64,000 nucleotides of DNA, taken from NCBI GenBank assembly GCA_030654225.1, contig JAURXY010000034.1, positions 25,184-89,183 of the forward strand, in the 5' to 3' direction. Every line of letters starts with the position of its first letter. Positions within the stretch are counted from its first letter, which is position 1. The notes beneath the pieces are model-generated. The model did no database searches. It saw only the letters and a program-made list of their open reading frames with translations, and was not told the DNA's origin. This stretch comes from a bacterium (GTDB lineage Bacteria > Patescibacteriota > Minisyncoccia > Moranbacterales > UBA2206). The position numbers and the translations under genes were made by a program. Shown one piece after another: positions 3,817 to 42,160 of the stretch.

Positions 3817-4362
3817 ATGGAATTTATAAAAACCACTCTAAAAGACGCATACATAATCAAACCGCAAGTTTTTGGAGATAATCGGGGATTTTTTTTGGAG
3901 TCATATTCCAAGAAAAAATTTAAAAAAGAGGGGATTGGCGCAGAATTTGTGCAGGACAACCATTCAAAATCAGAAAAAAAAGGCACACTTCGCGGACTGC
4001 ATTTTCAAATTCCGCCATATACACAAGCTAAGCTCATCCGAGTTGTAAGTGGCAAAATTTTAGATGTAATCGTTGATCTTCGCCGTGACAGTGAGACTTT
4101 TGGAAAATGGGAGGTTTTCGAGCTATCAGCCGAAAATTTTCAAATACTTTTCGTTCCGCAAGGTTTTGCTCATGGTTTTATGACACTAGAAGATAACACG
4201 GAAGTTTTATATAAAGCGGACAATTTTTATGAGCCTTCGCATGAAGGAGGAATTGCCTGGAATGATCCAGATTTGAAAATTAACTGGCCACTAGAAAATC
4301 CGATTCTTTCCGAGCGCGACACCAAATGGCCTAATTTGAAAAATTTAGATAATCCGTTTTAA
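3817..4362 (+). CDS. rfbC: dTDP-4-dehydrorhamnose 3,5-epimerase
   Basis: 181 aa; 'RGLHFQ', 'FVPQGFAHGF' and 'DNRGFF' motifs of RmlC cupin epimerases. Confidence 0.9.
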   Translation: MEFIKTTLKDAYIIKPQVFGDNRGFFLESYSKKKFKKEGIGAEFVQDNHSKSEKKGTLRGLHFQIPPYTQAKLIRVVSGKILDVIVDLRRDSETFGKWEVFELSAENFQILFVPQGFAHGFMTLEDNTEVLYKADNFYEPSHEGGIAWNDPDLKINWPLENPILSERDTKWPNLKNLDNPF

Positions 4363-4372
4363 TAAAAAATAT

Positions 4373-5431
4373 ATGAAATTATTAGTCACTGGTGGTGCGG
4401 GGTTTATCGGTTCAAATTTCATTCACTATTGGATCGAAAAACATCCGCAAGATTTAATTGTCAATTTGGACGCCTTGACCTATGCCGGCAATTTGGAAAA
4501 TTTGAAATCCATTGAAAGCCCGCCTCGCGTCGACGAGCGATCGTCTTCGCGAGTCGAGGCGGGTAATCCGAATTATAAATTTGTCAAAGCTGATATTTCC
4601 GACAAGGAAAAAATCAACGAAATAATTTCCACTGAAAAACCAGATGCAATTGTGCACTACGCCGCTGAATCGCATGTTGATCGCTCAATTTTAGGACCAG
4701 AAGCTTTTGTTCGAACGAATGTTTTGGGCACGTTTAATTTATTAGAAGCAGCACGCCAAAATGGCAACATCCGCTTTCATCACGTTTCCACAGATGAGGT
4801 TTTTGGCTCACTAGGCCCAAATGACGCACCTTTCAATGAAACGACGCCTTATGACCCCAGAAGCCCCTATAGCGCTTCTAAAGCGTCTTCAGACCACTTA
4901 GTGCGAGCCTATTTTCACACTTTTGGCCTGCCAATTACTATCTCTAATTGTTCCAATAATTTTGGTCCATTTCAATTTCCAGAGAAACTAATTCCACTAT
5001 TTGTAACCAATCTGATCGAAGGCAAAAAAATTCCCCTTTATGGCGATGGAATGAATGTTCGCGATTGGCTCTATGTCGAAGATCACTCCGGCGCAATTGA
5101 TCTAATTTTGCAAAAAGGCAAGATTGGCGAAACTTATTGCGTTGGCGGAAACACGGAAAAAAACAATAAGGAAATTACTTATAAAATTTTGGAACTGATG
5201 GGTAAGGGCGAAGAGATGATTGAATTTGTAGCAGATCGAAAAGGACATGATTTGCGCTATTCAATTGATTTTTCCAAGATTCAGCACGAACTTGGCTGGA
5301 CGCCAAAAACTTCCTTTGAAGACGGAATGAAAAAAACTATCCAGTGGTACAAAGAAAATGAAAGTTGGTGGAAAGAAATAAAATCTGGCGAATACCAGAA
5401 TTACTACGAGAAAAATTATAAAGATAGATAA
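4373..5431 (+). CDS. rfbB: dTDP-glucose 4,6-dehydratase (SDR) with an in-frame 15-codon palindromic insertion
   Basis: 352 aa; 'LLVTGGAGFIGSNF' Rossmann motif, YxxxK and 'LDALTYAGNLENL'. Extra 'PPRVDERSSSRVEAG' is encoded by the GC-rich palindrome at 4519-4563. Confidence 0.9.
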   Translation: MKLLVTGGAGFIGSNFIHYWIEKHPQDLIVNLDALTYAGNLENLKSIESPPRVDERSSSRVEAGNPNYKFVKADISDKEKINEIISTEKPDAIVHYAAESHVDRSILGPEAFVRTNVLGTFNLLEAARQNGNIRFHHVSTDEVFGSLGPNDAPFNETTPYDPRSPYSASKASSDHLVRAYFHTFGLPITISNCSNNFGPFQFPEKLIPLFVTNLIEGKKIPLYGDGMNVRDWLYVEDHSGAIDLILQKGKIGETYCVGGNTEKNNKEITYKILELMGKGEEMIEFVADRKGHDLRYSIDFSKIQHELGWTPKTSFEDGMKKTIQWYKENESWWKEIKSGEYQNYYEKNYKDR

Positions 5432-9555: not shown

Positions 9556-10638
9556 TTAGGATAGAATTTCCTTTATTTCCTCTAAACTCTCCGCCATAAC
9601 TAATTTTCGGCGCAATTCTGAGGCTCCAGGGAAACCTTTGACATACCAACTCATATGCTTTCGAATTTCAAAAAGTCCTTGTTGACCCTTGTTTTTGTGG
9701 ATTAATTTTGCATGAAGAAGCATTATTTTCTTTACCCTGTTAAGTAAATTTTGCTCTGCAAAATTATTTTTCGTAATCGAAAAATACTTAACAGGGTGAA
9801 TTTTTTTAAAATCGTATTTTGCCCCCGTAGAGACGCCCCGACGGGGCGTCTCTACACAATTCAATAATTCTTTTATCTCCTCAAAAATCCACGGCTTACC
9901 CCAAGCGCCCCGGGCAATTCCAAGACCATCCAAAAGAGGATGGTCTTGCAAAATTTTCACGCCATCCTCAGCGGAATTTATCCCACCGTTCGCCAAAACG
10001 ATTTTTTCCGGAAACATTTTTTTGATTTTTTCAACAAGATTGAAATCTAGCGAACCAGAAAACCCACCTTCATATGTTCGACCATGAATCATAATGACCG
10101 AGTAGGGAAGATCAGCTGTGCTTTTGACAAAATCAAGGGCTGAAAATCCTAAAGCCGAGCTTTGAGAATTTTTTAAAAGCTCGGCTTTAGGATTTTCAAT
10201 ACCTGCTCGAATTTTTATAGACACCGGCAATTTGGTATTTTCACAAACAGCCGAAATAATTTCACGCGCCAATTTTTTTTGCATCATTAGCGCGCAACCC
10301 GAACCATGACCAAAAACTTTTTTGGCCGGACAACCAAAATTAATGTCAATTCCATCTGGCTTCACTATTTGCGAAATAATTTTAGTGGCCTTGGCAAAAT
10401 GCGCCGGGTCTTTCCCAAAAAGTTGCACCACGTATGGCCGTTCAGCTCTATTAAATTTTACTAATTCTAAAGTTTTTTGAGGTTTAAAAAATAAAGCGCT
10501 AACGCTTGCCATTTCCGAATATACCACATCCGCTCCATATCGCCGGCAAATTTGACGAAACGCACTGTCCGTTATGCCCGCCATCGGGGCTAGAGCCAGA
10601 ATTGGTTTTTTCAATTTTAACCAAAAATTTTTATTCAC
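9556..10638 (-). CDS. dus: tRNA-dihydrouridine synthase (probable GTG start) with an in-frame palindromic insertion
   Basis: 360 aa; 'LAPMAGITDSAFRQICRRYGADVVYSEM' plus FMN-binding TIM-barrel motifs. The 29-nt perfect palindrome at 9827-9855 encodes extra residues in 'ETPRRGVSTGA'. Confidence 0.9.
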   Translation of the reverse strand: MNKNFWLKLKKPILALAPMAGITDSAFRQICRRYGADVVYSEMASVSALFFKPQKTLELVKFNRAERPYVVQLFGKDPAHFAKATKIISQIVKPDGIDINFGCPAKKVFGHGSGCALMMQKKLAREIISAVCENTKLPVSIKIRAGIENPKAELLKNSQSSALGFSALDFVKSTADLPYSVIMIHGRTYEGGFSGSLDFNLVEKIKKMFPEKIVLANGGINSAEDGVKILQDHPLLDGLGIARGAWGKPWIFEEIKELLNCVETPRRGVSTGAKYDFKKIHPVKYFSITKNNFAEQNLLNRVKKIMLLHAKLIHKNKGQQGLFEIRKHMSWYVKGFPGASELRRKLVMAESLEEIKEILS

Positions 10639-10808: not shown

Positions 10809-12245
10809 TTATTTTTTAATTAAATAATTATTATCTTTTAAATCTTCAATCACATAACCCGCCGATTCAATCTTCTTTCGCAGTTCATCTGAGGCTGCAA
10901 AATTCCCACTGATGCGAGCTTGTTTTCGCTCTTCGGCGAGCGTCAAAATATTCGCCGGAATTTCAATTTTATTTTCCGCAATTATCAATCCAAAAACTTT
11001 GTTTATTCTTTCCCAAAATTTCAAAATATTCTCAGCTGTTTCTTTGTCTAATTTATCCTCAGAAATCATTTTGTTAGTTTCACTAATCAGATCATATACT
11101 ACTGCCAAAGCCAATGGGGTATTGATATCATCATTCATGGCGCTTTCAAACCTTTTTTGATAGATATGAGAAAAATCTATTTTTTCTAAAGATTCCGCCT
11201 TTGGTGCGTCAGAAACATTTTTCAAATTACCCACCCAATCAGAAATTTTTTGCAAATTATTTTTGGCCTGAACGAGAACGCTAGGCGCATAATTCATAAC
11301 ACTTCTATATTGTGAACTCAGGATCCAGAGTCTTATCACCATTGGATCATATTCTTTTAGTATATCTTTTACAGAAGTGTGATTTCCTTTCGATTTAGAC
11401 ATTTTTTCACCATTTATATTGACCATATTCCAGAGTGTCCAGTAATTGGCCATTTTTTTGCCTAAATATGCTTCACTTTGAGCAACTTCATTTTCATTGT
11501 GCGGAAAAACATTCTCATTGCCTCCACCGTGGATGTCGAAAGTATCTTGACCAAGAAGATCAGCTGACATAACAGAACATTCAATATGCCAACCAGGATA
11601 TCCCAAACTCCAGGGACTTTGCCATTTCAAAATGTGATTTTCATCTGACTTTATCCAAAGAGCAAAATCTAGCTGATTTTTCTTTTCAGGATTATTTTCT
11701 ATACGCGCACCATCAATCAACTCCTCGGTTTTTCTTCCAGAAAGCTTTCCGTATTCTGGGAATTTGGTTACAGAAAAATATACGGATCCATTAGATTCGT
11801 AAGCATATTCTTTTTCAATTAAACCTTCAATGAATTTAATTATTTGTGCAATATATTGCGTTGGACGAGGATTAAAATTAGCTGGTTTGATATTTAGAGA
11901 TTGGAAATCTTCCTTGGCAGAATTGATATAATTTTCAACAATTTCCATTGGATCAATTTTTTCTGCTTTAGCTTTTTTTTCAATTTTATCTTCTCCTGTT
12001 TCGGCGTCATTCACAAGATGCCCAACATCTGTATAGTTCATAATAAATCTAACTTCATACCCTAAATATTCTAAATATTTTCTAAAAATATCCATTGAGA
12101 CATATCCGCGAGCATGACCGATGTGACAATGATCATAAACTGTCGGACCGCAAACATACATTCCGACTTTTCCCGTATAAATCGGTTTAAATTCTTCTTT
12201 TTTTCTAGTTAGAGTATTGTACAATAATAACATAATTTTTTTCAT
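10809..12245 (-). CDS. cysS: Cysteinyl-tRNA synthetase
   Basis: 478 aa; 'HIGH' (CHIGHARG) and 'KMSKS' motifs plus zinc-binding cysteines. Confidence 0.95.
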   Translation of the reverse strand: MKKIMLLLYNTLTRKKEEFKPIYTGKVGMYVCGPTVYDHCHIGHARGYVSMDIFRKYLEYLGYEVRFIMNYTDVGHLVNDAETGEDKIEKKAKAEKIDPMEIVENYINSAKEDFQSLNIKPANFNPRPTQYIAQIIKFIEGLIEKEYAYESNGSVYFSVTKFPEYGKLSGRKTEELIDGARIENNPEKKNQLDFALWIKSDENHILKWQSPWSLGYPGWHIECSVMSADLLGQDTFDIHGGGNENVFPHNENEVAQSEAYLGKKMANYWTLWNMVNINGEKMSKSKGNHTSVKDILKEYDPMVIRLWILSSQYRSVMNYAPSVLVQAKNNLQKISDWVGNLKNVSDAPKAESLEKIDFSHIYQKRFESAMNDDINTPLALAVVYDLISETNKMISEDKLDKETAENILKFWERINKVFGLIIAENKIEIPANILTLAEERKQARISGNFAASDELRKKIESAGYVIEDLKDNNYLIKK

Positions 12246-12301
12246 TTACGAACAAATTAAAATTTTCGTAGATTCGCATTAAATTCGTAGATTCGCATCG
12301 G

Positions 12302-13210
12302 TTATAGCCATTTTCTCATCTTAAAAATCGAAATAGTAACCGCTGAAAGGAAAAGCATAATCGCGAGATGAATCCAGAAAGCATTGGGGTTTTTTCCAAA
12401 AGGAATGTCGGCGCTCATGGCGAGAATATTAGAATAAACAGTCATCGGAAGCATCACGGCGGAAAAAATCGTGAGCACTTTCATGGTCATGTCTAGTTTG
12501 TTGGAAAGCAAGGAGTTATTAGTCTCTTCCAATGATTCGATCGTTTCTTTGGCACTTTCCAAATTATTCCAAATGCGAATATTAGTTCCGATCAAATCTT
12601 GATAGTATGGTTTCAAGGCTGGTTCGATTAGCTTGAAATCTTTTTGCGCCAAAGATTCAAAAACTGAGCGTTGCGGTTTCATTGTACGGCGAAAATTCAA
12701 AATGTCTCTTTTGACTACCGATATTTCAAAAACCATTTCTTTTTCGTGACCGGCAAAAATTTCTTTTTCCACATAATCCAATTTGTTGGAAATATGATCG
12801 AGTTTTGGAAAACAAGTTTCCAAAAGCATTTCGATAATATATCGTAACAGCGCACCAGGGGATTGATTCATATAAATTTCTCTTTTGGTTTTATCATTTT
12901 TCAATGAATTGAAAAAATCAGTAAGTTGAAAGATATCGCGATCATGAGAAGTGATCAAAGCATTTTCACAAAGAACTATGTCAATTTCTGCCGGATAGGT
13001 AGTTTTGTCCTCAGTGTCAAAAAGGGGAATGTGAATAGAGAGAAAGAGGCAGTTGTCATATTGCGTGGCTTTTGGCCTGAGAGTCGGCGTGGAAAATTCT
13101 TCAATGATAAGTGGATGCAAATTATATTTTTTCTGAATTTTCAGCACATCATCCGCGTTAGGTTCTTTGAAATAATGCCAAACTAAATCATTACATTTGA
13201 CTGTTTCCAT
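12302..13210 (-). CDS. CorA-family divalent cation transporter (divergent GMN motif)
   Basis: 302 aa; two C-terminal TM helices ending '...KMRKWL'; CorA-like cytoplasmic domain. Confidence 0.6.
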   Translation of the reverse strand: METVKCNDLVWHYFKEPNADDVLKIQKKYNLHPLIIEEFSTPTLRPKATQYDNCLFLSIHIPLFDTEDKTTYPAEIDIVLCENALITSHDRDIFQLTDFFNSLKNDKTKREIYMNQSPGALLRYIIEMLLETCFPKLDHISNKLDYVEKEIFAGHEKEMVFEISVVKRDILNFRRTMKPQRSVFESLAQKDFKLIEPALKPYYQDLIGTNIRIWNNLESAKETIESLEETNNSLLSNKLDMTMKVLTIFSAVMLPMTVYSNILAMSADIPFGKNPNAFWIHLAIMLFLSAVTISIFKMRKWL

Positions 13211-18180: not shown

Positions 18181-18327
18181 TGTCATCCTCGCACCCGCTT
18201 CGCGAGCATAAACTCCAGCGGGGATCCAGTATATAGACTAAGTTTATTGCGATAAAAATTATTTTGATACTAGATTCCCGTTTTCACTCGCCTCGCTGAA
18301 GCTTTGGCGAAGCGGGCGGGAATGACA
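18181..18327. mobile_element. MITE-like element, family A (TIR tgtcatcctcgc / gcgggaatgaca), copy 1
   Basis: 147 nt between fmt and def. Terminal inverted repeats; internal 'taagtttattgcgataaaaattatttt' shared with the copy at 18776-18872. Confidence 0.75.
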
Positions 18328-18328
18328 G

Positions 18329-18769
18329 CTATTTCTTGTCTATAAAAAGCATTCCGTTTAAATGATCAATCTCGTGTTGCAAGGCTCGCGAGAGAAGTCC
18401 TTCGGCTTTGATTTCAATTTTTTCTCCTTTTTTATCCAAGGCCTTCACGGTGACTTTTTTGTGTCTCTTGACTGGGATAAATTTTCCAGGAAAAGATAGA
18501 CAACCCTCTTCGCAAATTTCTTTTCCCCAAGATTTTCGAGCAATTTTCGGGTTGATTAGAATATGCGTTTTTCCATCTAATTTTATAATACAAAGTTGCA
18601 CTGATTGTCCCACTTGCGGAGCAGCCAAGCCCAAAGCATTGCCACTTTCTTCCATAGTCGCAATCATATCCAAAATCAAGTCTTTGATTTCTCGACTTTT
18701 TGGTTCTTTTATCTTCTTCGCTTTTTGACGAAGAATTTCATTAGGATAGGTTATTATTGGTAATATCAT
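18329..18769 (-). CDS. def: Peptide deformylase
   Basis: 146 aa; 'GLAAPQVG', 'EGCLSFPG' and 'HEIDHLNG' motifs. Confidence 0.95.
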   Translation of the reverse strand: MILPIITYPNEILRQKAKKIKEPKSREIKDLILDMIATMEESGNALGLAAPQVGQSVQLCIIKLDGKTHILINPKIARKSWGKEICEEGCLSFPGKFIPVKRHKKVTVKALDKKGEKIEIKAEGLLSRALQHEIDHLNGMLFIDKK

Positions 18770-18877: not shown

Positions 18878-20902
18878 TTAAATAATTGAAATTGGATCTC
18901 GATCGATTATCCAACCTGATTTGAGTTTTCTAATTTCTTTTTCTAATTCAATTGGAATTTTATCTGGAAATTTAACAATCATTTGCTTTCGCCAGCGTCC
19001 TCTGATTTTTGAGAGCAGGGGAGTGTGCGGTTCAGATATTTTTATTCCTTTTGCTGATTTTAATATTTCAAAAACTGCCAGACTTTCTTTTTCAACTTTT
19101 TCAAAATTATAATCCTGAAAAACCAATTTGACAATTTTCCCATACGGCGGAAAATTCAAAGCTTTTCGTTCCTCAATTATCTTTTGAAAAAAACTTTGAA
19201 AATTATTTTCTCCGGCCAATTGAATAATTTTATTTTCCGGTTGATATGTTTGAATAACCACTTCTCCAGGAAAGCGCGCTCCAGGGCGATTCACTCTCCC
19301 GGCAAGCTGAGAGATTATTTGAAAGGCCTTTTCTTCAGCCGAAAAATCAGGAAATGACAAAAGATTATCTGCATCTATTATACCAACCAATGACACGCGA
19401 GGCAAATCCCAGCCCTTGGAAATCATCTGCGTTCCAATCAAAATATCCGCCTCACCTTTGGAAAAAGCATCATAAATTTTTTCATGAAAATTTTGTTCTT
19501 TTGAAGAGGCTGTGTCAGCCACAATTATTTTGGCCGAAGGAAACAAACTCAAAATTTCTTTTTCTACTTTTTGCGTTCCCAATCCAACGTTTTTGAAACT
19601 TATCCCGCCACATTTCTCGCATTTTGGAAAAATACTCGTCTTATAATTACAATGATTGCATTTATAGAATCCGCCTTTTTCATAAACAAGCGCCCGCTCA
19701 CACTCAGGACACTTGAGCACTGCTTTGCACGCTTCACAAATTGAAAAACTACTCATACCTTGGCGATTGATAAACAAGATTGATTGCTGTTTATTTTTTA
19801 GCGCATATTCAATTTCACCTTTTAATTTTCTTGATATGCAAGTATAGTTTCCTGCCTGCCGATGAGGCAGGTTGGTCCAGCGTTCTTTTTTCATGTCAAC
19901 GATGGTGGTGTTTGGTATTTTATATTTAGTGTCTAATATTTCAAGATGTGGCAATTCTAATAATTTCAAATCTTTGTTAATCGCACGATAATATGATTCG
20001 ATACTTGGCGTAGCTGAGCCACGAACGATTTTCGCTTTATGAATCTCAGCTAATTTTTCTGCCACCGTTCTAGCGTCGTAACGCGGATTCATATCCCACT
20101 GTTTGAAAGACATATCCTGTTCTTCATCAATCACAATAAGCCCGAGTTTTTTAAACGGCGCAAAAACCGCCATGCGAGTACCAATAACTATTTTTATTTT
20201 TCCTGATTGAATGCCTTGCCAAGTAGAAAAAATCTGTCCCTTGGAAATATTACTACTTAAAACCCCAATTTCTTCCGGCTTAAAATATGCACCATATCTT
20301 TCCATGGCCTGCGGAGTCAAAGTTTTTTCTGGGATAATAATCAGAAATTGAAAATTCTTATTTATTTTTCTTAATTCAATAATTGAATTTATATAAACCT
20401 CCGTCTTCCCCGATCCCGCCGGACCAAAAAGCAAGTAATTTGTAATTGGTAATTTGTAATTGGTAATTTTTTTGACAGCATCTTTTTGCTCTTTTGTTAA
20501 TACAATATTTCCTCCTCTCCCTTCGGGAGAGGATGTCCGAAGGACAGGAGAGGGAGCTTTGCGTGATTTCATACGCTTTGGGACAAAATTTTTCATCACT
20601 ACACCCAATGGAGAAATATAATAATCAGAAATAAATTTTGCCAATTCTATTTGGCTATCGGAGAGAAAATTTTCAACGATTATTTTTTCAACTTTTTTTA
20701 GTTCAATATTACCCAATCTTTCAAAATCCTGCCTCGTCCCCAAAACAATTCCTTCCACACTTCGATGAAAAAGGGGAATCGAGACCAAGGTTCCAGTTGA
20801 AATTTTGACATCTGACAAATAGGAAAAAGACTGATGGGAAGACATCGGAATTTTTGTTAGTGGAACAATGTCGATAATAAACTTCTGCTTTTTGTTTGCC
20901 AT
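18878..20902 (-). CDS. priA: Primosomal protein N' (PriA helicase) carrying two in-frame hairpin insertions
   Basis: 674 aa; Walker A 'GPAGSGKTEVY', DEEQ box and a Cys4 zinc finger (CEACKAVLKCPECE...CNHC). Palindromes at 19851-19871 and 20511-20556 lie in-frame. Confidence 0.9.
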   Translation of the reverse strand: MANKKQKFIIDIVPLTKIPMSSHQSFSYLSDVKISTGTLVSIPLFHRSVEGIVLGTRQDFERLGNIELKKVEKIIVENFLSDSQIELAKFISDYYISPLGVVMKNFVPKRMKSRKAPSPVLRTSSPEGRGGNIVLTKEQKDAVKKITNYKLPITNYLLFGPAGSGKTEVYINSIIELRKINKNFQFLIIIPEKTLTPQAMERYGAYFKPEEIGVLSSNISKGQIFSTWQGIQSGKIKIVIGTRMAVFAPFKKLGLIVIDEEQDMSFKQWDMNPRYDARTVAEKLAEIHKAKIVRGSATPSIESYYRAINKDLKLLELPHLEILDTKYKIPNTTIVDMKKERWTNLPHRQAGNYTCISRKLKGEIEYALKNKQQSILFINRQGMSSFSICEACKAVLKCPECERALVYEKGGFYKCNHCNYKTSIFPKCEKCGGISFKNVGLGTQKVEKEILSLFPSAKIIVADTASSKEQNFHEKIYDAFSKGEADILIGTQMISKGWDLPRVSLVGIIDADNLLSFPDFSAEEKAFQIISQLAGRVNRPGARFPGEVVIQTYQPENKIIQLAGENNFQSFFQKIIEERKALNFPPYGKIVKLVFQDYNFEKVEKESLAVFEILKSAKGIKISEPHTPLLSKIRGRWRKQMIVKFPDKIPIELEKEIRKLKSGWIIDRDPISII

Positions 20903-22245: not shown

Positions 22246-22314
22246 TGTCATACTGAACTTGTTTCAGTATCTAAAAAATTGCAAAGCAGATCCCGAAATA
22301 AATTCGGGATGACA
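22246..22314. repeat. Hairpin repeat element, family C
   Basis: tgtcatactgaacttgtttcagtatc ... gatcccgaaataaattcgggatgacaa. Confidence 0.65.
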
Positions 22315-23371: not shown

Positions 23372-24940
23372 ATGAACAAAATCAGAACTAGATTTGCGCC
23401 GTCGCCGACGGGATACTTGCATATTGGGGGTCTTCGGACTGCACTGTATGATTATTTATTCGCCAAAAAAAATGGTGGTGATTTTTTGTTGAAAATTGAA
23501 GATACTGATCGAAAAAGATTTGTTGAAGGTGCGGTGGAAAAATTAATAATTTCATTAGATTTTCTAGGATTGGAAAGAAATGAAGGAGTAATGTTAAACA
23601 ATAATACCAATGGTCAGGAATCAAAAAATTATCCCAGAGTTTTTGAAGTAGGCGAATATGGACCTTATATTCAATCAGAAAAATTAGAAATTTACAAAAA
23701 ACATGTTGATGAATTAGTGAAAAATGGCCATGCCTATTATTGTTTTTGCGAACCAAAAAGACTTGAGGAAATGAGATCTGAACAAACCGCCCAAAAACAA
23801 CCCCCTATTTATGATAGATTTTGTTTGCAAAATGTTAGCGAAGAAGAAATAAATAAAAATCTAAAAAATAATTGTCCCTATACTATTCGAATTAAAGTTC
23901 CGCACGACGAAATAATTGAAGTGGATGACGAAATCAGAGGACGCGTTAAATTTAATACTAATTTAGTCACCGATCAAATACTTTTGAAATCTGACGGCTT
24001 TCCCACTTATCATTTAGCTAGCATCATAGATGACCATGATATGCAAATCACACATGTTATTCGTGGCGAAGAATGGCTTCCGAGCATTCCAATTCATATT
24101 TTATTATATCGCTATTTCAATTGGGAAGCTCCGAAATTTGCTCACTTACCACTTCTTCTTAATCTAGACAAATCCAAACTTTCTAAGCGTCAGGGGGATG
24201 TGGCGGTGGAAGATTACATTAAAAACGGATATTTAAAAGAAGCTCTTATTAATTTTGTAGCCTTTTTAGGTTGGAATCCTGGGAAAGGAGAAACGCAAGA
24301 AATTTTCACGCTTGAAGAATTAGTGGAGAAATTTGATCTGACTCATGTTCACAAGGCGGGCGCAGTTTTTGACATCAAAAAATTAGATTGGATAAATTCA
24401 CAGTGGATCAAGAAACTTTCCATCGAAGAGTTATATCAAAAATCTTTGCCATTTCTTGAGGAAAAAGAATTTTATAAAAATGCTAGTGCAGAAAAAAAAT
24501 CCGAAGACTATATCAAAAAAATCCTTTCCATTGAACAGGACCGTCTCACAAATTTGTCAGAAGTGGGGGAGAGCAATCAGTTCTTTTTTAGGGATACAAA
24601 TTTTGACAAAGAACTTTTACGCTGGAAAGATATGAATGACGAAGACTTGAAAAAATCACTAGAAAAATCTCTCCGCGTTTTGGAAAATATAACGGACGAA
24701 AATTGGACGCGCGAAAATTTGGAAAAAATTCTGATGGAAAAGGCGGATGAAAAGCCTGCCTCGCCGGCTCGCCTCGCTGGAGCTATGGCGAAGCGGGCAG
24801 GCGGGAGGGGAGAGCTCCTCTGGCCACTGCGCGCCACGCTTACGGGAGAGAAAAAATCACCTTCACCATTTGAATGTGCGTGGGTGCTTGGGAAAGAAGA
24901 AACATTATCGAGATTAAAAAATACAATAGGCAAAATATAA
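23372..24940 (+). CDS. gltX: Glutamyl-tRNA synthetase with a GC-rich, MITE-derived in-frame insertion
   Basis: 522 aa; 'RFAPSPTGYLHIGG' and 'KLSKR' motifs. The 24751-24850 segment shares about 30 nt with the MITE family A arm. Confidence 0.9.
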   Translation: MNKIRTRFAPSPTGYLHIGGLRTALYDYLFAKKNGGDFLLKIEDTDRKRFVEGAVEKLIISLDFLGLERNEGVMLNNNTNGQESKNYPRVFEVGEYGPYIQSEKLEIYKKHVDELVKNGHAYYCFCEPKRLEEMRSEQTAQKQPPIYDRFCLQNVSEEEINKNLKNNCPYTIRIKVPHDEIIEVDDEIRGRVKFNTNLVTDQILLKSDGFPTYHLASIIDDHDMQITHVIRGEEWLPSIPIHILLYRYFNWEAPKFAHLPLLLNLDKSKLSKRQGDVAVEDYIKNGYLKEALINFVAFLGWNPGKGETQEIFTLEELVEKFDLTHVHKAGAVFDIKKLDWINSQWIKKLSIEELYQKSLPFLEEKEFYKNASAEKKSEDYIKKILSIEQDRLTNLSEVGESNQFFFRDTNFDKELLRWKDMNDEDLKKSLEKSLRVLENITDENWTRENLEKILMEKADEKPASPARLAGAMAKRAGGRGELLWPLRATLTGEKKSPSPFECAWVLGKEETLSRLKNTIGKI

Positions 24941-24959: not shown

Positions 24960-26192
24960 ATGTTAAACAAAAAAACAAAATTAATATTTTTTATTTTTAT
25001 CGCAATTTTTTCATTTTTAAATTTGGAAAAAGTTTTTGCTGTTGATTGCGACGATAAATGCAAAACTCTTTATCCAACCGACCAAACACTGCAAAAAAAA
25101 TGCTCTGATGATTGCGATACTATTGAAAAATATCAAAAACTCATTGACATCAAAGACAAACAGCTGGAAGTTGTCACCACTCAACTCAGCTATATAAACA
25201 AAGAACAAGCCCAAAATCAACAAACTCTCCTTGAAACAATCAAAAATCTAACTAGTATTTCTGAAAAAATAACCAAACTCGAAGAAAGTATTGAACAGAA
25301 AGAAAAAGATATAATTTATCAAAAAAAGATGCTTTCTGGGCTGATGCAATCTTATTATGATTATGATCAACAGGGGATATTAGAAATAATCCTTCTGGAT
25401 AACACCTTTATAAATCCTTTTGGACAAGTCGACTATATTAACCAATCCGGAGTTAAGGTTTCAGATTTATTAAGCTCTATTAAAAAAAATCAACAAGAAT
25501 TAATCGATGATCAAAAAGAACTTCAGGGGTCTTATGATCAAAGCAATAAATTAAAAGATGAACTGCAGAGTGAAAAAAACGAATTACAATTAAACGAAAA
25601 TCAAAAACAAAAAGTTCTAGTCGATACTCAAGCTGAAAAAGCAAAATATGAAAAACTTTTGTCCGACATTGAAGATGAAATATATAATCTAGAATCAAAT
25701 AAAGCGGTTGATTATAGCAATCTACCCCCAGCCAAAGGCGGATATTTCAACTATCCAGTTTCTTCAGTGAGAATCACTCAAGGATATGGGATGACTGCCT
25801 ATGCTAAGCGAGGGGCTTATGGTGGCAAACCTCACAACGGGGTTGATTTTGGACTTAGCACTGGCAATAATATTTTCACGGCTAAGGGCGGAAAAGTTGT
25901 TGGTGTTGGTAATAATGGAAAATATGCTTATGGCAAATGGGTTGCAGTTGACCATGGTGATGGGCTGCTCACGCTATACGGACACCTTAGTAGTCAACTT
26001 GTTTCAAAAGGTAGCACTCTCAAAATAGGGGACAAGATTGGAAAAAGTGGCAATACAGGAAATTCAACTGGACCACATCTTCACTTTTCTGTTTTCACTT
26101 CAAAAAGTTTTGAAACTGTTCAATCGAAATATGTTAAAGGACTTATGATTCCTATTGGTGCTTCAATCAACCCAACCAAATATCTAAAATAA
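24960..26192 (+). CDS. M23-family metallopeptidase with N-terminal signal and coiled-coil
   Basis: 410 aa; 'HNGVDFG' and 'GNSTGPHLHF' LytM/M23 motifs. Long Gln/Glu-rich coiled-coil, EnvC-like. Confidence 0.85.
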   Translation: MLNKKTKLIFFIFIAIFSFLNLEKVFAVDCDDKCKTLYPTDQTLQKKCSDDCDTIEKYQKLIDIKDKQLEVVTTQLSYINKEQAQNQQTLLETIKNLTSISEKITKLEESIEQKEKDIIYQKKMLSGLMQSYYDYDQQGILEIILLDNTFINPFGQVDYINQSGVKVSDLLSSIKKNQQELIDDQKELQGSYDQSNKLKDELQSEKNELQLNENQKQKVLVDTQAEKAKYEKLLSDIEDEIYNLESNKAVDYSNLPPAKGGYFNYPVSSVRITQGYGMTAYAKRGAYGGKPHNGVDFGLSTGNNIFTAKGGKVVGVGNNGKYAYGKWVAVDHGDGLLTLYGHLSSQLVSKGSTLKIGDKIGKSGNTGNSTGPHLHFSVFTSKSFETVQSKYVKGLMIPIGASINPTKYLK

Positions 26193-29806: not shown

Positions 29807-29833
29807 TGTCATCCTGAACTTGTTTCAGGATCC
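29807..29833. repeat. Hairpin repeat element, family C
   Basis: tgtcatcctgaacttgtttcaggatcc, immediately upstream of the GIY-YIG ORF. Confidence 0.65.
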
Positions 29834-29843
29834 CTATTAATCT

Positions 29844-30152
29844 ATGAAACAATATTGTGTTTACATTATTACTAATAAACTAAATAAAGTTTTTTATATT
29901 GGATTTACTGGAAATTTACCAAAAAGAATTTACGAACATAAAAATAAATTAGTAAAAGGATTTTCTGAAAAATATAATTTAACAAAATTAGTTTATTTTG
30001 AGCAAACAACGGATGTTTATTCTGCTATCTCCAGAGAAAAACAACTAAAAAATTGGCACAGGGATTGGAAAATAAACCTGATAACTAAAAGTAATCCGGG
30101 TTGGATAGATTTGTATGACACATTATTAGATGCTGAAACAAGTTCAGCATGA
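29844..30152 (+). CDS. GIY-YIG nuclease-domain protein (stand-alone, about 100 aa)
   Basis: 'VYIITN...FYIGFTGNLPKRIYEHK' GIY-YIG motif. The ORF's 3' end overlaps the downstream hairpin element. Confidence 0.75.
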   Translation: MKQYCVYIITNKLNKVFYIGFTGNLPKRIYEHKNKLVKGFSEKYNLTKLVYFEQTTDVYSAISREKQLKNWHRDWKINLITKSNPGWIDLYDTLLDAETSSA

Positions 30153-30217
30153 CAGTCTTTTTTATCTTATCATCCTGAGTTTGTCTTTTTGTCATCCTGA
30201 ATTTATTTCAGGATCTC
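30129..30217. repeat. Hairpin repeat cluster, family C
   Basis: gatgctgaaacaagttcagcatgaca ... tcatcctgagtttgtc ... tgtcatcctgaatttatttcaggatc. Confidence 0.7.
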
Positions 30218-31000: not shown

Positions 31001-31708
31001 CTATCTTATCACCGTCCCTTGAAATTCCTTCTCCTCTAAAATATTTTTCAAATTCTTTAAATTTTTTCCTTCGGCAATGATGACCTCAAGATTGTTTTCC
31101 TGGGCAAGTTTTGAAGCTACTGGATCAAAAGGCATATTGAGTCCTGGGTCCCAACGATTGCCAACAATTTTGCGAAAATTTTTCCAATTAATTTCTTTGA
31201 TTATTTTAGCATCCGGATATTTTTTCGGATCTTTGTCGCAAGCATATTTAATGTTGGAAAGATTGATGAGTTTTTTAGCGCCCAGTCTTTCTGCGATAAT
31301 TGTGGCGACATAGTCAGTGGACGCTCCTGGCTTCCAACCAGCAGCCACCATAATCCCCTCCCCAGCCGCAAAGTGAGTGGATAAATTTTCTTTAGTGCGC
31401 GGGTTTTTGTTGATTCTTGGATGAGCATAGGCACGAAAAATAGTTTTCACTAAATGCGCATTGAGTCTTGTTGCATGAATACCTAGCCAGTCTTGGTCAT
31501 CCTTGGTAAGTTTAGTCACTTTATTAGCTGCTTGCGCATATTCCCTCGCCGCATATCCCCCGCCCGTAATAATCGCAAATTTTTTGCCTTTCTTAATTTC
31601 TGAGACTATCAACTCGCGAAACTTTTTCAAAAACTGCCAATCGATTCTTTTTGGAACGATTAGTGAACCTCCGAGAGAAATTACAATGATATTATTTTTA
31701 TTATTCAT
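31001..31708 (-). CDS. pyrH: Uridylate (UMP) kinase
   Basis: 235 aa; 'ISLGGSLI', 'ITGGGYAARE' and 'AAGEGIMVAAG' amino-acid kinase motifs. Confidence 0.9.
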   Translation of the reverse strand: MNNKNNIIVISLGGSLIVPKRIDWQFLKKFRELIVSEIKKGKKFAIITGGGYAAREYAQAANKVTKLTKDDQDWLGIHATRLNAHLVKTIFRAYAHPRINKNPRTKENLSTHFAAGEGIMVAAGWKPGASTDYVATIIAERLGAKKLINLSNIKYACDKDPKKYPDAKIIKEINWKNFRKIVGNRWDPGLNMPFDPVASKLAQENNLEVIIAEGKNLKNLKNILEEKEFQGTVIR

Positions 31709-31746
31709 AGTGTTTTAATTTTGTTCGTAGATTCGCATATAATTCG

Positions 31747-31790
31747 CCCGCCTCGCGTCGACGAGCAATCGTCTTGCGAGTCGAGGCGGG
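31747..31790. repeat. GC-rich palindromic element, second copy of the rfbB insert
   Basis: cccgcctcgcgtcgacgagcaatcgtcttgcgagtcgaggcggg, nearly identical to 4519-4563. Confidence 0.8.
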
Positions 31791-31808
31791 TAGTTTCGCA
31801 TCGGTTAA

Positions 31809-32240
31809 TTATTTAATACAATTTTTATCCGGCAAGTATCCTCTTGATTCTGCCTCAATTTTCGAAGAAAAGCAAACTAGGTTTTTCGGACTTATATTCT
31901 TGGCATAACGGCAAGTCGACAAATGATATTTATTGGAATTTTTTGACCCTACGAAAGCGCAATTTTGAGGTTGGCCAGTAGCGCCAGTTTCATCCTTTTT
32001 CGCCTCAGATGGCAAATTTTGGCTTTGAGAGACGCCACAAACCGCCTGATTGTTGTTATCGGCCGGCTTTTCAATAATAAGCGGGTTTTGAGCCATTTTT
32101 TGACCTTTCAAAACTCCCCCTTCAAAAGAAATTACAGCGACTAAAACAAAGCCCAGAATGAGAATTATCTTATGTTCGTATTTTTGCCAAAAATCTTTAG
32201 TTTTTGCTTTTATGACGTTTTTATCCATAGCTGTTGACAT
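31809..32240 (-). CDS. Membrane-anchored protein with a C-terminal Ada-type zinc-binding domain
   Basis: 143 aa; N-terminal TM. The C-terminal 'YHLSTCRYAKNISPKNLVCFSSKIEAESRGYLPDKNC' matches the Ada N-terminal Zn(Cys4) domain pattern. Confidence 0.6.
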   Translation of the reverse strand: MSTAMDKNVIKAKTKDFWQKYEHKIILILGFVLVAVISFEGGVLKGQKMAQNPLIIEKPADNNNQAVCGVSQSQNLPSEAKKDETGATGQPQNCAFVGSKNSNKYHLSTCRYAKNISPKNLVCFSSKIEAESRGYLPDKNCIK

Positions 32241-34335: not shown

Positions 34336-34779
34336 CTACTCAATCCCCCTTACTTCTAATTTAATTTTTTCTCTTATTTCTTCTGACAATTTTATTTCAA
34401 TTTCATATTCTCCCACCTTCTTTATTGCTTGTTTAATTATAATTGAATTTGCTAAAATGTTCAAGCCTTCTTTTTTCAGGGCTTCTTCGATATTTTTGAC
34501 TGTTATCGAACCGAAAAGCTTACCCTTTTTTTCCTTAGCTTCAATAGTAATTTTTTTGCCTTTTAGAACACTGGCTAAATTTCTTAGTCGCTCCGTCTCG
34601 GCCAGTTTGTTTTTTTGTTCTTTTTCTTTTTGCGATTGAAAAAACTTAACTGCACTTTCTGTTGCAACGCCCGCTAATTTTTTGGGAAGCAAAAAATTTT
34701 GCGCATACCCTTCCGCCACTTCTTTCACATCTCCCTTCTTCCCCAAACTTTTCACATCTTGTAATAATATTATTTTCAT
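34336..34779 (-). CDS. rplI: 50S ribosomal protein L9
   Basis: 147 aa; 'MKIILLQDVKSLGKKGDVKEVAEGYAQNFLLP'. Confidence 0.9.
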   Translation of the reverse strand: MKIILLQDVKSLGKKGDVKEVAEGYAQNFLLPKKLAGVATESAVKFFQSQKEKEQKNKLAETERLRNLASVLKGKKITIEAKEKKGKLFGSITVKNIEEALKKEGLNILANSIIIKQAIKKVGEYEIEIKLSEEIREKIKLEVRGIE

Positions 34780-34797
34780 AGATTCGTATAATTAAAA

Positions 34798-40957: not shown

Positions 40958-42160
40958 TTACATTTCTTCAATTATATTCAAAATCTTCTCACTAAATTTT
41001 TCCCACGAAAATTGCTTGGCTCGTTCTTGACCTCTGTTTTTTAGTTGTTCTCGCAAGTCATGATTAGTCAAAACATTCTTCAAAACCATCGCGATATCAG
41101 TTATGTCATCAGGATTACAATATAGCACACTATCTCCACCAACTTCTGGCAGTGAGGAAACTTTTGAAGTGATGACAGGCGTGCCAACATTCATTGCTTC
41201 CAGAATTTGCATGCCGAAACCTTCATAATGTGATGGATAGACAAACATAACAGCCTCACTAAACAGTGCTGGCAAATCTTTTTGCGGAACTTCACCCAAA
41301 AGAATCACGTGTTTCGTTAAATTTAATTCTTTAAGAATTCTTTCTATCGGCGTTGCCAGGCTCAAACTTTCCGGCAAAACTTTCCCGTATATCGCTAACT
41401 TCGGAAAATTTGGCAAGAAATTTTCTTTTTTGTTTCTTTCCAAAAGCAACTTATATGCCCGCACCACTCCTTCGACATTTTTCCGCACTTCATATCCCCC
41501 ACCAGCCAAAACATATCCGGGATTTATTTTGTATTTCTTCAAAATATTCGCATGTCCAGCATTCGTAGCGCCGGTTCGCGAAGCGAATAACTCATCTACA
41601 TCTATATAATTAGTAGTAATTTTGTCTGCGCCTATATTTAAGTGTTCAATTAGATCTTTTTCTGTCCTTTTGGAAACAGCAACAATTTTGTCCGCCTTTT
41701 TTATCCCATATTCTGTTAATTTCCAATACAATTTCTTTCTAAAGTTATCCAGATATTTGGGAAACAATTTTGGAATAATATCATGCACCAGCATAATATG
41801 CTTCACTTCCTTATATGGTTGAATGCCCGCCTGCCGGCGAGGCAGGGAAGTAGGACATTGGTACATACTAACAAAAACATCGCAACCGTCTTTTTTGACA
41901 AGGCGCGGCAAAAGGATTTTTTCCCACCAAATTTTTCGAATCAAATCATCGCGCTTATAAACTGGTAGGAATATTTTCTTGCTAAAATTATCAGGAAGCT
42001 TAAAATCTTTTGGAATATCTTCCTCCAAATACAAAACAAATTCAAAATCATTCTGCTTATATCTTACCAACATTTTCAAAAAATTGGTTGTCACTTGCCC
42101 GATGCCCGTATGAGGCTTTCGAAGATAACTTGCATTGATTCCTACTTTTTTCTTTTTCAT
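40958..42160 (-). CDS. Glycosyltransferase family 4 with an in-frame hairpin insertion
   Basis: 400 aa; 'YPSHYEGFGMQILEAMNVGTPVI'. The hairpin at 41826-41848 encodes 'LPRRQAG'. Confidence 0.75.
   Translation of the reverse strand: MKKKKVGINASYLRKPHTGIGQVTTNFLKMLVRYKQNDFEFVLYLEEDIPKDFKLPDNFSKKIFLPVYKRDDLIRKIWWEKILLPRLVKKDGCDVFVSMYQCPTSLPRRQAGIQPYKEVKHIMLVHDIIPKLFPKYLDNFRKKLYWKLTEYGIKKADKIVAVSKRTEKDLIEHLNIGADKITTNYIDVDELFASRTGATNAGHANILKKYKINPGYVLAGGGYEVRKNVEGVVRAYKLLLERNKKENFLPNFPKLAIYGKVLPESLSLATPIERILKELNLTKHVILLGEVPQKDLPALFSEAVMFVYPSHYEGFGMQILEAMNVGTPVITSKVSSLPEVGGDSVLYCNPDDITDIAMVLKNVLTNHDLREQLKNRGQERAKQFSWEKFSEKILNIIEEM

Follow-up and report, generated by a model that had tools for sequence, protein, structure and literature searches.

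A Very Short, Probably Mobile GC-Rich Palindrome Inside rfbB Keeps the Reading Frame and Is One Copy of a Repeat Family Spread over Patescibacteria

Introduction

How does an otherwise intact housekeeping enzyme come to carry 15 extra residues encoded by a GC-rich palindrome? The question is raised by the rfbB gene of a Moranbacterales bacterium (Patescibacteriota; Minisyncoccia; UBA2206; assembly GCA_030654225.1), within the 64,000 nucleotides (nt) of contig JAURXY010000034.1 analyzed here (positions 25,184 to 89,183, forward strand; hereafter the window, whose own numbering we use). An initial annotation had proposed that a mobile palindromic element interrupts this gene without closing its reading frame. 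We consider it highly probable that the palindrome is one copy of a Patescibacteria-wide family of very short GC-rich imperfect palindromes, here called family E, that behave as non-autonomous mobile DNA. Two features of the family go beyond the initial proposal: E is found across the superphylum, rather than in this genome in particular, and it lies in physical linkage with Ssn-like GIY-YIG genes. The genomes of Patescibacteria are tiny and gene-dense, and the encoded proteins contain many odd insertions that usually go unexplained; E provides a concrete source for some of them.

Results

The element and its host gene are as follows:

4373..5431, plus strand: rfbB/rmlB (dTDP-glucose 4,6-dehydratase), full length and otherwise intact by alignment to PDB 6bi4 and to homologs
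4519..4563, plus strand: E copy in rfbB, reading in frame as PPRVDERSSSRVEAG (codons 50-64, nt 4520-4564)
31747..31790, plus strand: intergenic E copy of 44 nt, not a multiple of 3, lying 39 nt upstream of a UMP-kinase-like start (minus strand)

The rfbB copy, CCCGCCTCGCGTCGACGAGCGATCGTCTTCGCGAGTCGAGGCGGG, is an imperfect palindrome of 45 nt. Its terminal inverted repeats, CCCGCCTCG and CGAGGCGGG, are perfect over 9 nt, as first described, and the pairing further inside is imperfect. Its GC content, originally put at about 65%, is in fact 73% (33/45), in a window that averages about 35%. The near-identical second copy reported at the outset is indeed present, although a single G-to-A substitution and the loss of 1 nt separate it from the first, instead of two substitutions plus an indel. 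Chance predicts 0.00 occurrences of the 20-mer CCCGCCTCGCGTCGACGAGC and 0.06 of the 9-mer arm in the window, which contains two and four, respectively. As single strands, the copies are predicted to fold into a hairpin of -27 kcal/mol (z = -3.2 for the rfbB copy and -4.1 for the second); an Rfam search at both window copies gave no match.

The protein comparison bears out the proposed in-frame addition of 15 codons to a frame that stays open. The product of the open reading frame (ORF) 4373..5431 matches PDB 6bi4 with E = 1.7e-116, and the alignment contains a gap of exactly the 15 residues PPRVDERSSSRVEAG; the junction peptide spanning the insert is …LKSIESPPRVDERSSSRVEAGNPNYK…. The best homologs belong to Candidatus Moranbacteria and other Patescibacteria. 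In an AlphaFold model (predicted template modeling score 0.87), residues 50-64 form a coil between the helix at 37-47 and the strand at 68-72, with a mean predicted local distance difference test score of ~51. The insert is therefore predicted to sit in a low-confidence surface loop, in line with the location originally suggested.

The nearest relatives provide empty versions of the same site. The insert is missing from the homolog P0001 of contig L001, whose protein is 96% identical when the insert is disregarded, and from L122, a metagenome contig and the sole useful sequence from a metagenome search for close rfbB relatives. Their DNA reads GAA AAT AAT CCG (GAAAA^TAATCC), where the window has GAA AG[C CCG ... 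GCG GG]T AAT CCG. The flanks of the window and of these two contigs are otherwise near-identical, the BLAST alignment breaks exactly at 4517 and 4564, and no target-site duplication is visible in either comparison. Empty relatives with near-identical flanks imply that E entered between the second and third bases of an Asn codon (GAA AA^T AAT), without duplication.

A wider survey of RfbB reveals a more complex history. Among the window protein and its 120 best homologs, an insert is present at the same position in 14 of the 121 proteins and absent from 107. In a neighbor-joining tree from which the insert columns were excluded, the 14 filled proteins form six separate clades, and parsimony on this tree requires a minimum of six changes, with absence as the ancestral state. 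The initial expectation that orthologs would lack the insert thus holds for the solved RmlB structures and for these 107 proteins, including the two closest relatives, L001 and L122, but not for the 13 homologs, spread over the six clades, that carry the same peptide. We obtained DNA of five filled alleles. In four of these lineages, the 18 + 16 arm bases are 100% identical, beside 60 flanking coding bases per side that are only 78% and 71% identical. The fifth allele, P0020 (L212), is occupied at the same nucleotide by an element whose interior is reverse-complemented, so that it encodes PPRLAETTARRREAG. The loop variants seen in rfbB recur in other genes of other genomes, and the synonymous base directly after E (the third position of a Gly codon) is T, C, C, A and G in the five lineages. 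Some empty alleles are also informative. P0002 reads GAAAACCCGCCGAAT where L001 has GAAAATAATCCGAAT, the four adjacent differences being the first bases of the element, and P0009 reads ENLPNY; both look like deletion footprints. Because of the six clades, the inverted interior, the identical arms beside diverged codons and the apparent footprints, these alignments indicate that the rfbB site is a repeatedly occupied and vacated hot spot. The recurrence of the 15 residues in orthologs would accordingly reflect neither a conserved protein segment nor a single old insertion.

Short inserts or extensions of other kinds are seen in several RfbB homologs (P0052, P0021, P0050, P0116, P0058 and P0082), including KKYP followed by ARNASHSDAGG, RNGN preceded by SAGW, and extensions at the N terminus (for instance MLSFPRKRKSS...), a type that resembles translated hairpins like the NTS repeats of Neisseria.

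The initial annotation had proposed a search for further copies, and these proved to be many, in unrelated genes and intergenic DNA of many Patescibacteria. We scanned one genome per species of bacteria and archaea with the pattern CCCGCCTCGCGTCGA, 8-24 unspecified bases, TCGAGGCGGG (25 specified bases). At least 113 genome stretches matched, spread over Patescibacteria. The matches listed are mostly from Moranbacteria and also include Parcubacteria, Saccharibacteria, Gottesman-, Zambryski-, Kaiser-, Woese- and Buchananbacteria, as well as one single-cell genome. The family has a common anatomy of 9-nt outer arms (CCCGCCTCG/CGAGGCGGG), conserved inner arms and a variable loop. The 133 unique copies that we analyzed (the scan matches listed plus related loci) are 34-47 nt long, with modes at 39, 42 and 45. 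A fuzzy census of decayed copies, allowing two mismatches per arm, yielded unusable counts, since the lazy match stopped inside the element. Viral contigs gave no match to E and hence no sign of a phage vector. Some E-bearing contigs (L010, L021, L029, L037, L093 and others; 33-49% GC) are labeled Gammaproteobacteria, Bdellovibrionales, Burkholderiales or Bathyarchaeia. At least L010 has the same host gene and flanks as the Patescibacteria contig L090. We suspect labeling errors in these contigs; if the labels were right, E would cross phylum and domain boundaries.

We then asked what constrains the copies that lie in genes, defined as those with 30 or more codons on both sides of E in an ORF of 150 codons or longer. 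By this measure, 65 of the 133 copies are inside long ORFs, and 61 of the 65 are multiples of 3 nt (p = 1e-24 against an expectation of one third), the four exceptions lying near ORF ends. Clearly non-coding copies are multiples of 3 in 28 of 41 cases, a significantly lower proportion (Fisher p = 8e-4). Two of the six possible reading frames dominate, PASTRGD..STRGG with 32 copies and PPRVDE..RVEAG with 20 (chi-square p = 6e-14), and the E consensus has no stop codon in any of the six. In silico deletion of the copies that are not multiples of 3 restored a long ORF in none. These length and frame statistics argue for read-through translation under purifying selection, and against splicing or ribosomal bypass. 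Orientation relative to the host gene shows no strand preference (29 sense, 36 antisense). According to Pfam, the hosts include UvrA, UvrB, SecA, topoisomerase I (TopA), Pth, Dus, a radical-SAM activase, an LCP protein and GT4 glycosyltransferases. One 566-codon ORF (L038, 810-1035) contains three E copies about 90 nt apart, each in a different frame and each flanked by AATGTTCCACG...TGGAACA. Finally, 26 distinct 45-nt copies display compensatory changes (CG/UA, GC/AU) at three inner-stem pairs. These changes fit selection for the hairpin, although template-switch mutation in palindromes could yield them too.

Insertion sites share some sequence preferences. The base preceding E is mostly G or A and the base following it mostly T or C; intergenic copies usually lie in TTCG^TA(G), in either orientation. 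The sites and neighbors that bear on this in the window are:

31724..31801, plus strand: context of the intergenic copy, comprising motif TTCGTAGATTCGCAT and then a second motif copy split into TTCG, E and TAGTTTCGCAT
31001..31708, minus strand: UMP-kinase-like ORF (amino-acid-kinase family, Pfam), neighbor of the intergenic copy
31809..32240, minus strand: other neighboring ORF, with no Pfam match at 1e-5
12265..12298, plus strand: unoccupied paralog of the target, a tandem TTCGTAGATTCGCAT upstream of a cysS-like start, with TTCG^TAG intact at 12284-12290
41562..41569: empty E target TTCG^TAGC, junction 41565^41566, inside the GT4 glycosyltransferase gene 40958..42160 (minus strand)

The second copy had originally been placed between pyrH and an Ada-Zn gene; its neighbors are the UMP-kinase-like ORF and the ORF that has no Pfam match at this threshold. 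An orthologous intergenic copy with the same flanks is present in L017 (Moranbacteria RIFOXYA12_FULL_35_19). Motif TTCGTAGATTCGCAT is intact at 12265, 12284 and 31724 and occurs with two mismatches at 34775 (34775-34789). Each occurrence either coincides with the start of a minus-strand ORF or precedes it by no more than ~40 nt (the ORFs being cysS-like, pyrH-like and 34336..34779); the motif may be a promoter or leader element. The paralogous target is occupied elsewhere: L004, L006 and L036 have an E copy in the corresponding spacer upstream of cysS. In the window GT4 gene, the sequence around 41565^41566 is CATTCG^TAGCGCC; precisely this junction is filled by a 42-nt E in the L081 ortholog. 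In none of the three filled-versus-empty comparisons (window versus L001 and L122; L081 versus window) is there a target-site duplication.

One E subfamily, which includes the three copies of the L038 ORF, lies at the center of the palindrome AATGTTCCACG^TGGAACATT. Insertion at palindrome centers is not, however, a general rule: flanking stems of at least 6 were found at 6% of sites versus 1.3%, but the overall distribution was the same as at random positions. We also rejected the idea that E copies are interrupters of functional tRNAs, since deletion of E followed by ARAGORN restored a complete tRNA for only one of the 133 copies; the remaining tRNA-associated copies are in partial tRNA copies beside GIY-YIG genes. 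The single case is a complete tRNA-Glu(CTC) gene with E in its D-arm (L092, 6138-6182), recovered by ARAGORN only after the deletion. It is probably redundant, with an intact paralog at 3838-3912.

What might move such an element? ORF clustering of the 113 loci identified no recurrent transposase and, host genes aside, no dominant family, but small GIY-YIG genes (Pfam PF01541) were recurrent. Within the scanned loci, E lies no more than 75 nt upstream of the start in 10 of 15 GIY-YIG genes; random placement of the copies within their loci gave a mean of 0.31 such adjacencies and a maximum of 4 in 5000 trials. The genes belong to units with a consistent order, namely a partial 5' tRNA copy with E in its D-arm, the GIY-YIG ORF and an intact tRNA. 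The loci are:

L092, 3388-3912
L027, 4499-4907
L071, 3524-3930
L121, 3190-3651
L087, 2876-3281
L089, 1992-2728
L202, L207, L209 and L211

Upstream of the gene, L054 and L113 likewise have a partial tRNA copy that carries E. The partial copy spans bases 1 to 24-51 and, once E is removed, matches the downstream intact tRNA over the whole alignment, with no mismatch in four loci, one mismatch in L087 and, in L092, an offset of one base that varies with the end point chosen for E. The ORF, of ~81-90 residues, starts 11-70 nt after E, and its distance to the intact tRNA is 8-9 nt where measured. The tRNAs involved are tRNA-Glu(CTC), tRNA-Glu(TTC), tRNA-Gln(CTG) and tRNA-Leu(TAA). In all loci but L207, where it is between gene and tRNA, the partial copy is upstream of the GIY-YIG gene. 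In L025, the D-arm of the tRNA copy carries the palindromes CCTGCCTGCTGGCAGGCAGG and CCCCGCCCGGCGGGG in place of E, and some tRNA remnants (L121, L207) have a second palindrome in the anticodon loop. We found no such combination of GIY-YIG gene, partial tRNA and palindrome in the literature searched.

Because the scanned loci had been selected for E, we used as an independent check the homologs of one E-linked GIY-YIG protein, collected by protein search alone. In all four of the loci for which DNA was available, the gene is accompanied by a partial tRNA-Glu copy that contains E, at a D-arm position that differs between loci. The E-linked proteins are 36-40% identical to a GIY-YIG protein encoded in the window. 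Searches for a more precise assignment of the small GIY-YIG proteins found no specific model and no Ssn model in NCBIfam, and a PDB sequence search was uninformative.

The GIY-YIG gene of the window belongs to a second hairpin family, GTCATCCTGAAYTTRTTTCAGGATC, of which there are seven copies in the window against 0 expected. The relevant features are:

29844..30152: GIY-YIG gene, 102 aa, in the region 29808-30215; termini of the unit GTCAT...ATGAC
29808-29832: GTCATCCTGAACTTGTTTCAGGATC, on one side of the gene
30129-30153: inverted partner of GTCATCCTGAACTTGTTTCAGGATC, containing the stop codon
13225-13292: ~67-nt unit, the same two hairpins without a gene
22247-22313: ~67-nt unit, likewise without a gene

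Short units of ~67 nt also occur in L006, L020, L024, L031 and L103, with compensatory stem variants. The arrangement of gene-bearing and gene-less units looks like an autonomous/non-autonomous pair.

The window has four further GC-rich palindromic islands, each in frame within a housekeeping ORF:

20511-20563: island in PriA, adding RKAPSPVLRTSSPEGRGG
24733-24854: island in GltX, adding KPASPARLAGAMAKRAGGRGE
41808-41866: island in GT4, adding PTSLPRRQAGIQ
9809-9863: island in Dus, adding VETPRRGVSTG

A relative of the GltX island is intergenic at 18277-18330, and the family of the GT4 island also adjoins E copies in L116 and L088. Dus contains, in addition, a stretch of ~66 nt encoding HPVKYFSITKNNFAEQNLLNRV (window ~9733-9798, minus strand). 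A near-identical stretch (HPVKYFSITKNNFVNQNLLNRV) is found at a different Dus site in L002 (Dus 11507-12562), and a further Dus insert, PKAELLKNSQSSALGFS, is common to the window and L004 but absent from L002; several further in-frame insert families thus exist.

Discussion

These data suggest a model in which E is inserted and removed at the DNA level, at precise positions and in short preferred sequences (often TTCG^TA-like), in either orientation. The copy in rfbB would be read through by the ribosome as 15 extra residues, which RfbB appears to tolerate. It would persist by being a multiple of 3 nt, by having no stop in any frame and by lying in one of the two tolerated frames. More generally, genic copies would survive only if they keep the frame and encode a hydrophilic loop peptide bounded by Pro and Gly.

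As to the mobilizing activity, our best candidate, proposed tentatively and by analogy, is a small single-domain GIY-YIG nuclease of the Ssn type. Such an enzyme would act on hairpins in single-stranded DNA (ssDNA), and host repair would do the joining. Alternatively, E might be mobilized by trans-acting enzymes not found here or by recombination with other copies. It is possible, if still doubtful, that E and the small GIY-YIG genes form an autonomous/non-autonomous pair, in which the nuclease drives spread, excision and re-insertion at TTCG^TA-like sites and tRNA D-arms. The hairpin of such a pair would be adapted to life in coding DNA by its multiple-of-3 length, its six open frames and its Pro/Gly-capped peptide.

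Several considerations weigh against mobility and against the role of the nuclease. No transposase or other strand-transfer enzyme was found at E loci. Ssn is not known to move its repeats, and GIY-YIG enzymes are hydrolytic nucleases. The GIY-YIG gene of the window is itself flanked by a different hairpin family (GTCATCC...GGATC), not by E. Four of the loci selected by protein search share neighboring genes, so that they are partly one orthologous locus. Adjacency could also be passive, with tRNA D-arm remnants serving as favored or harmless landing sites; or the nuclease-gene copies with an interrupted flanking tRNA repeat may be the ones that escape deletion. The closest relatives compared are other species, at ~88-92% nucleotide identity, and polymorphism within a population was not observed. 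Selection at the level of the host, instead of recent movement, could explain the identical arms, and template switching offers a second source for the compensatory changes. The case for translation of the insert, finally, is one of frame and length statistics.

Host selection is the basis of the alternative that survives best. E could be a cis element maintained by the host, for instance a recognition hairpin for an Ssn-type ssDNA nuclease that restricts or marks transforming DNA, with the rfbB copy simply sitting in a tolerant loop. The arms are invariant even at synonymous positions, the inner stem changes in a compensatory manner, E is tied to GIY-YIG genes, and the Neisseria NTS/SsnA pair does modulate transformation (PMC11893778). 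Nevertheless, the nearest relatives have no copy at either of the two sites examined, which implies that no single copy is required; the apparent deletion footprints, the absence of strand preference relative to host genes, the presence of only ~2 copies in the 64 kb window and the fact that half of the copies disrupt protein loops all point the same way. We therefore regard this explanation as unlikely, while noting that host function and selfish spread are not mutually exclusive.

The patchy distribution in RfbB might instead go back to a single ancient insertion that was later lost many times, or to rfbB segments exchanged through homologous recombination once DNA had been taken up. Loss does occur, as the footprint-like vacant sites of P0002 and P0009 show, and the variable base after E implies some age. 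A single origin, however, needs far more changes than the six of the parsimony solution, and it does not readily accommodate arms without a substitution beside flanks of 71-78% identity, or a site occupied in both internal orientations and by loop subfamilies that also occur in other genes. As for exchange, the flanks of the window copy match the empty alleles of L001 and L122 rather than the filled ones, and no conversion tract is visible. Both versions are, in our view, improbable.

Still less probable, to the point of being very hard to sustain, is that a small intervening sequence or bypass element is removed or skipped at the level of RNA or translation, leaving a protein without the 15 residues. 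GC-rich hairpin inserts are bypassed in the coding regions of one yeast mitochondrion, that of Magnusiomyces (GC clusters; PMC8811140), and the E hairpin is predicted to be stable, at -27 kcal/mol. But removal would lift the frame constraint that we observe in both length and frame choice; moreover, none of the copies that would break a frame interrupts a gene, E is found in either orientation in host genes, and no Rfam family matches. An assembly or sequencing artifact, or a chance palindrome, can be dismissed: although the data are mostly metagenome-assembled genomes, the same element recurs in assemblies of numerous independent projects as well as a single-cell genome, with in-frame selection, variable loops with compensatory changes and an expected chance count in the window of 0.00.

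The broader picture is that a hairpin family of about 40 nt, together with at least four other short insert families in the window, colonizes genes, among them rfbB, uvrA, secA and topA, and persists only where the frame is preserved. For metagenome-assembled genomes, inserts of this type are a possible source of error in gene calling, in the alignment of orthologs and in structure prediction. If the proposed pairing is true, E and its GIY-YIG partner would for the first time provide evidence of Ssn-hairpin pairs being real mobile elements, and such pairs would be remodeling housekeeping proteins across the candidate phyla radiation (CPR).

Comparison with Known Systems

Family E is apparently undescribed: we found no account of such elements in Patescibacteria in the literature searched, the nearest work concerning insertions in CPR rRNA genes (PMC11270868). 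Among bacterial elements, it recalls miniature inverted-repeat transposable elements by its terminal inverted repeats, with 9-nt perfect arms and additional inner arms, but its insertions lack the target-site duplication. No gene lies between two E arms, and the units that contain GIY-YIG genes have E on one side only. Members of IS200/IS605 insert beside a short specific sequence without target duplication, and E is alike in this. The REP/RAYT system likewise combines short hairpin repeats with an associated nuclease gene flanked by them. REPs, however, are extragenic and have a 5' GTAG-type tetranucleotide, whereas half of the E copies are in ORFs and E starts CCCGCC. REPs are partnered by a tyrosine HUH transposase; the recurrent neighbors of E loci, where no systematic search for one was made, showed no such gene.

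The GC clusters of yeast mitochondria are short GC-rich palindromes with fast-changing loops in a very AT-rich genome, are regarded as mobile and include strain-polymorphic in-frame insertions in var1 (PMC8811140). E is similar in being a short GC-rich palindrome with a fast-changing loop and in-frame copies. It is nevertheless not a member of this group: GC clusters are mitochondrial and mostly intergenic, and their terminal AG/TAG repeats are read as target duplications, which E does not show.

The in-frame insertions of Rickettsia palindromic elements (RPEs), to which the rfbB insert was likened from the outset, are a closer functional parallel, and the likeness is supported in that sense. 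RPEs are palindromic, have no coding capacity of their own and lie in frame in unrelated housekeeping genes of a reduced AT-rich genome (PMC10969869). E, too, is palindromic, lies in frame in many unrelated protein genes and adds a peptide segment. RPEs are ~100-150 bp long as opposed to 34-47 nt, and E is hosted by Patescibacteria, not Rickettsia. The two sequences appear unrelated, though E was not aligned to RPE consensus sequences. E is also far richer in GC than its host genome, open in six frames, found in both orientations at one site and linked to GIY-YIG genes. It thus resembles RPEs in function without being a member, and extends the phenomenon to a whole superphylum with a much smaller element.

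A further comparison is with the Ssn family, single-domain GIY-YIG proteins of ~100 residues that cut ssDNA beside a cognate hairpin repeat (Chenal et al., 2025; PMC11893778). These repeats (NTS/SRM) are 20-50 nt long, flank the Ssn gene and are dispersed in the genome; the authors note the look of an insertion sequence in the unit and draw the parallel to REP/RAYT (PMC11893778). Their paper makes no mention of Patescibacteria, tRNAs or in-frame copies, and units of tRNA fragment, E, GIY-YIG gene and tRNA are not described there (PMC11893778). E differs from the known repeats in lying only upstream of the GIY-YIG gene, with a tRNA downstream, and within the window it does not flank the GIY-YIG gene. 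It lacks the NTS consensus (CGTCATTCCCGCG..CGCGGGAATC) and the GTCATTCCC..GGGAATC core, and its flanks are not conserved. Whereas Neisseria NTS copies are rarely in genes (2%; PMC11893778), about half of the E copies are in long ORFs. On the other side, E is a dispersed, hairpin-forming inverted repeat within the size range of 20-50 nt and stands beside small GIY-YIG genes (~80-100 aa), and the window gene 29844..30152 with its own hairpins fits the Ssn/SRM architecture directly. By this analogy, E is probably a new Ssn-type repeat, and the link to Ssn nucleases makes the question of how hairpin repeats move experimentally testable.

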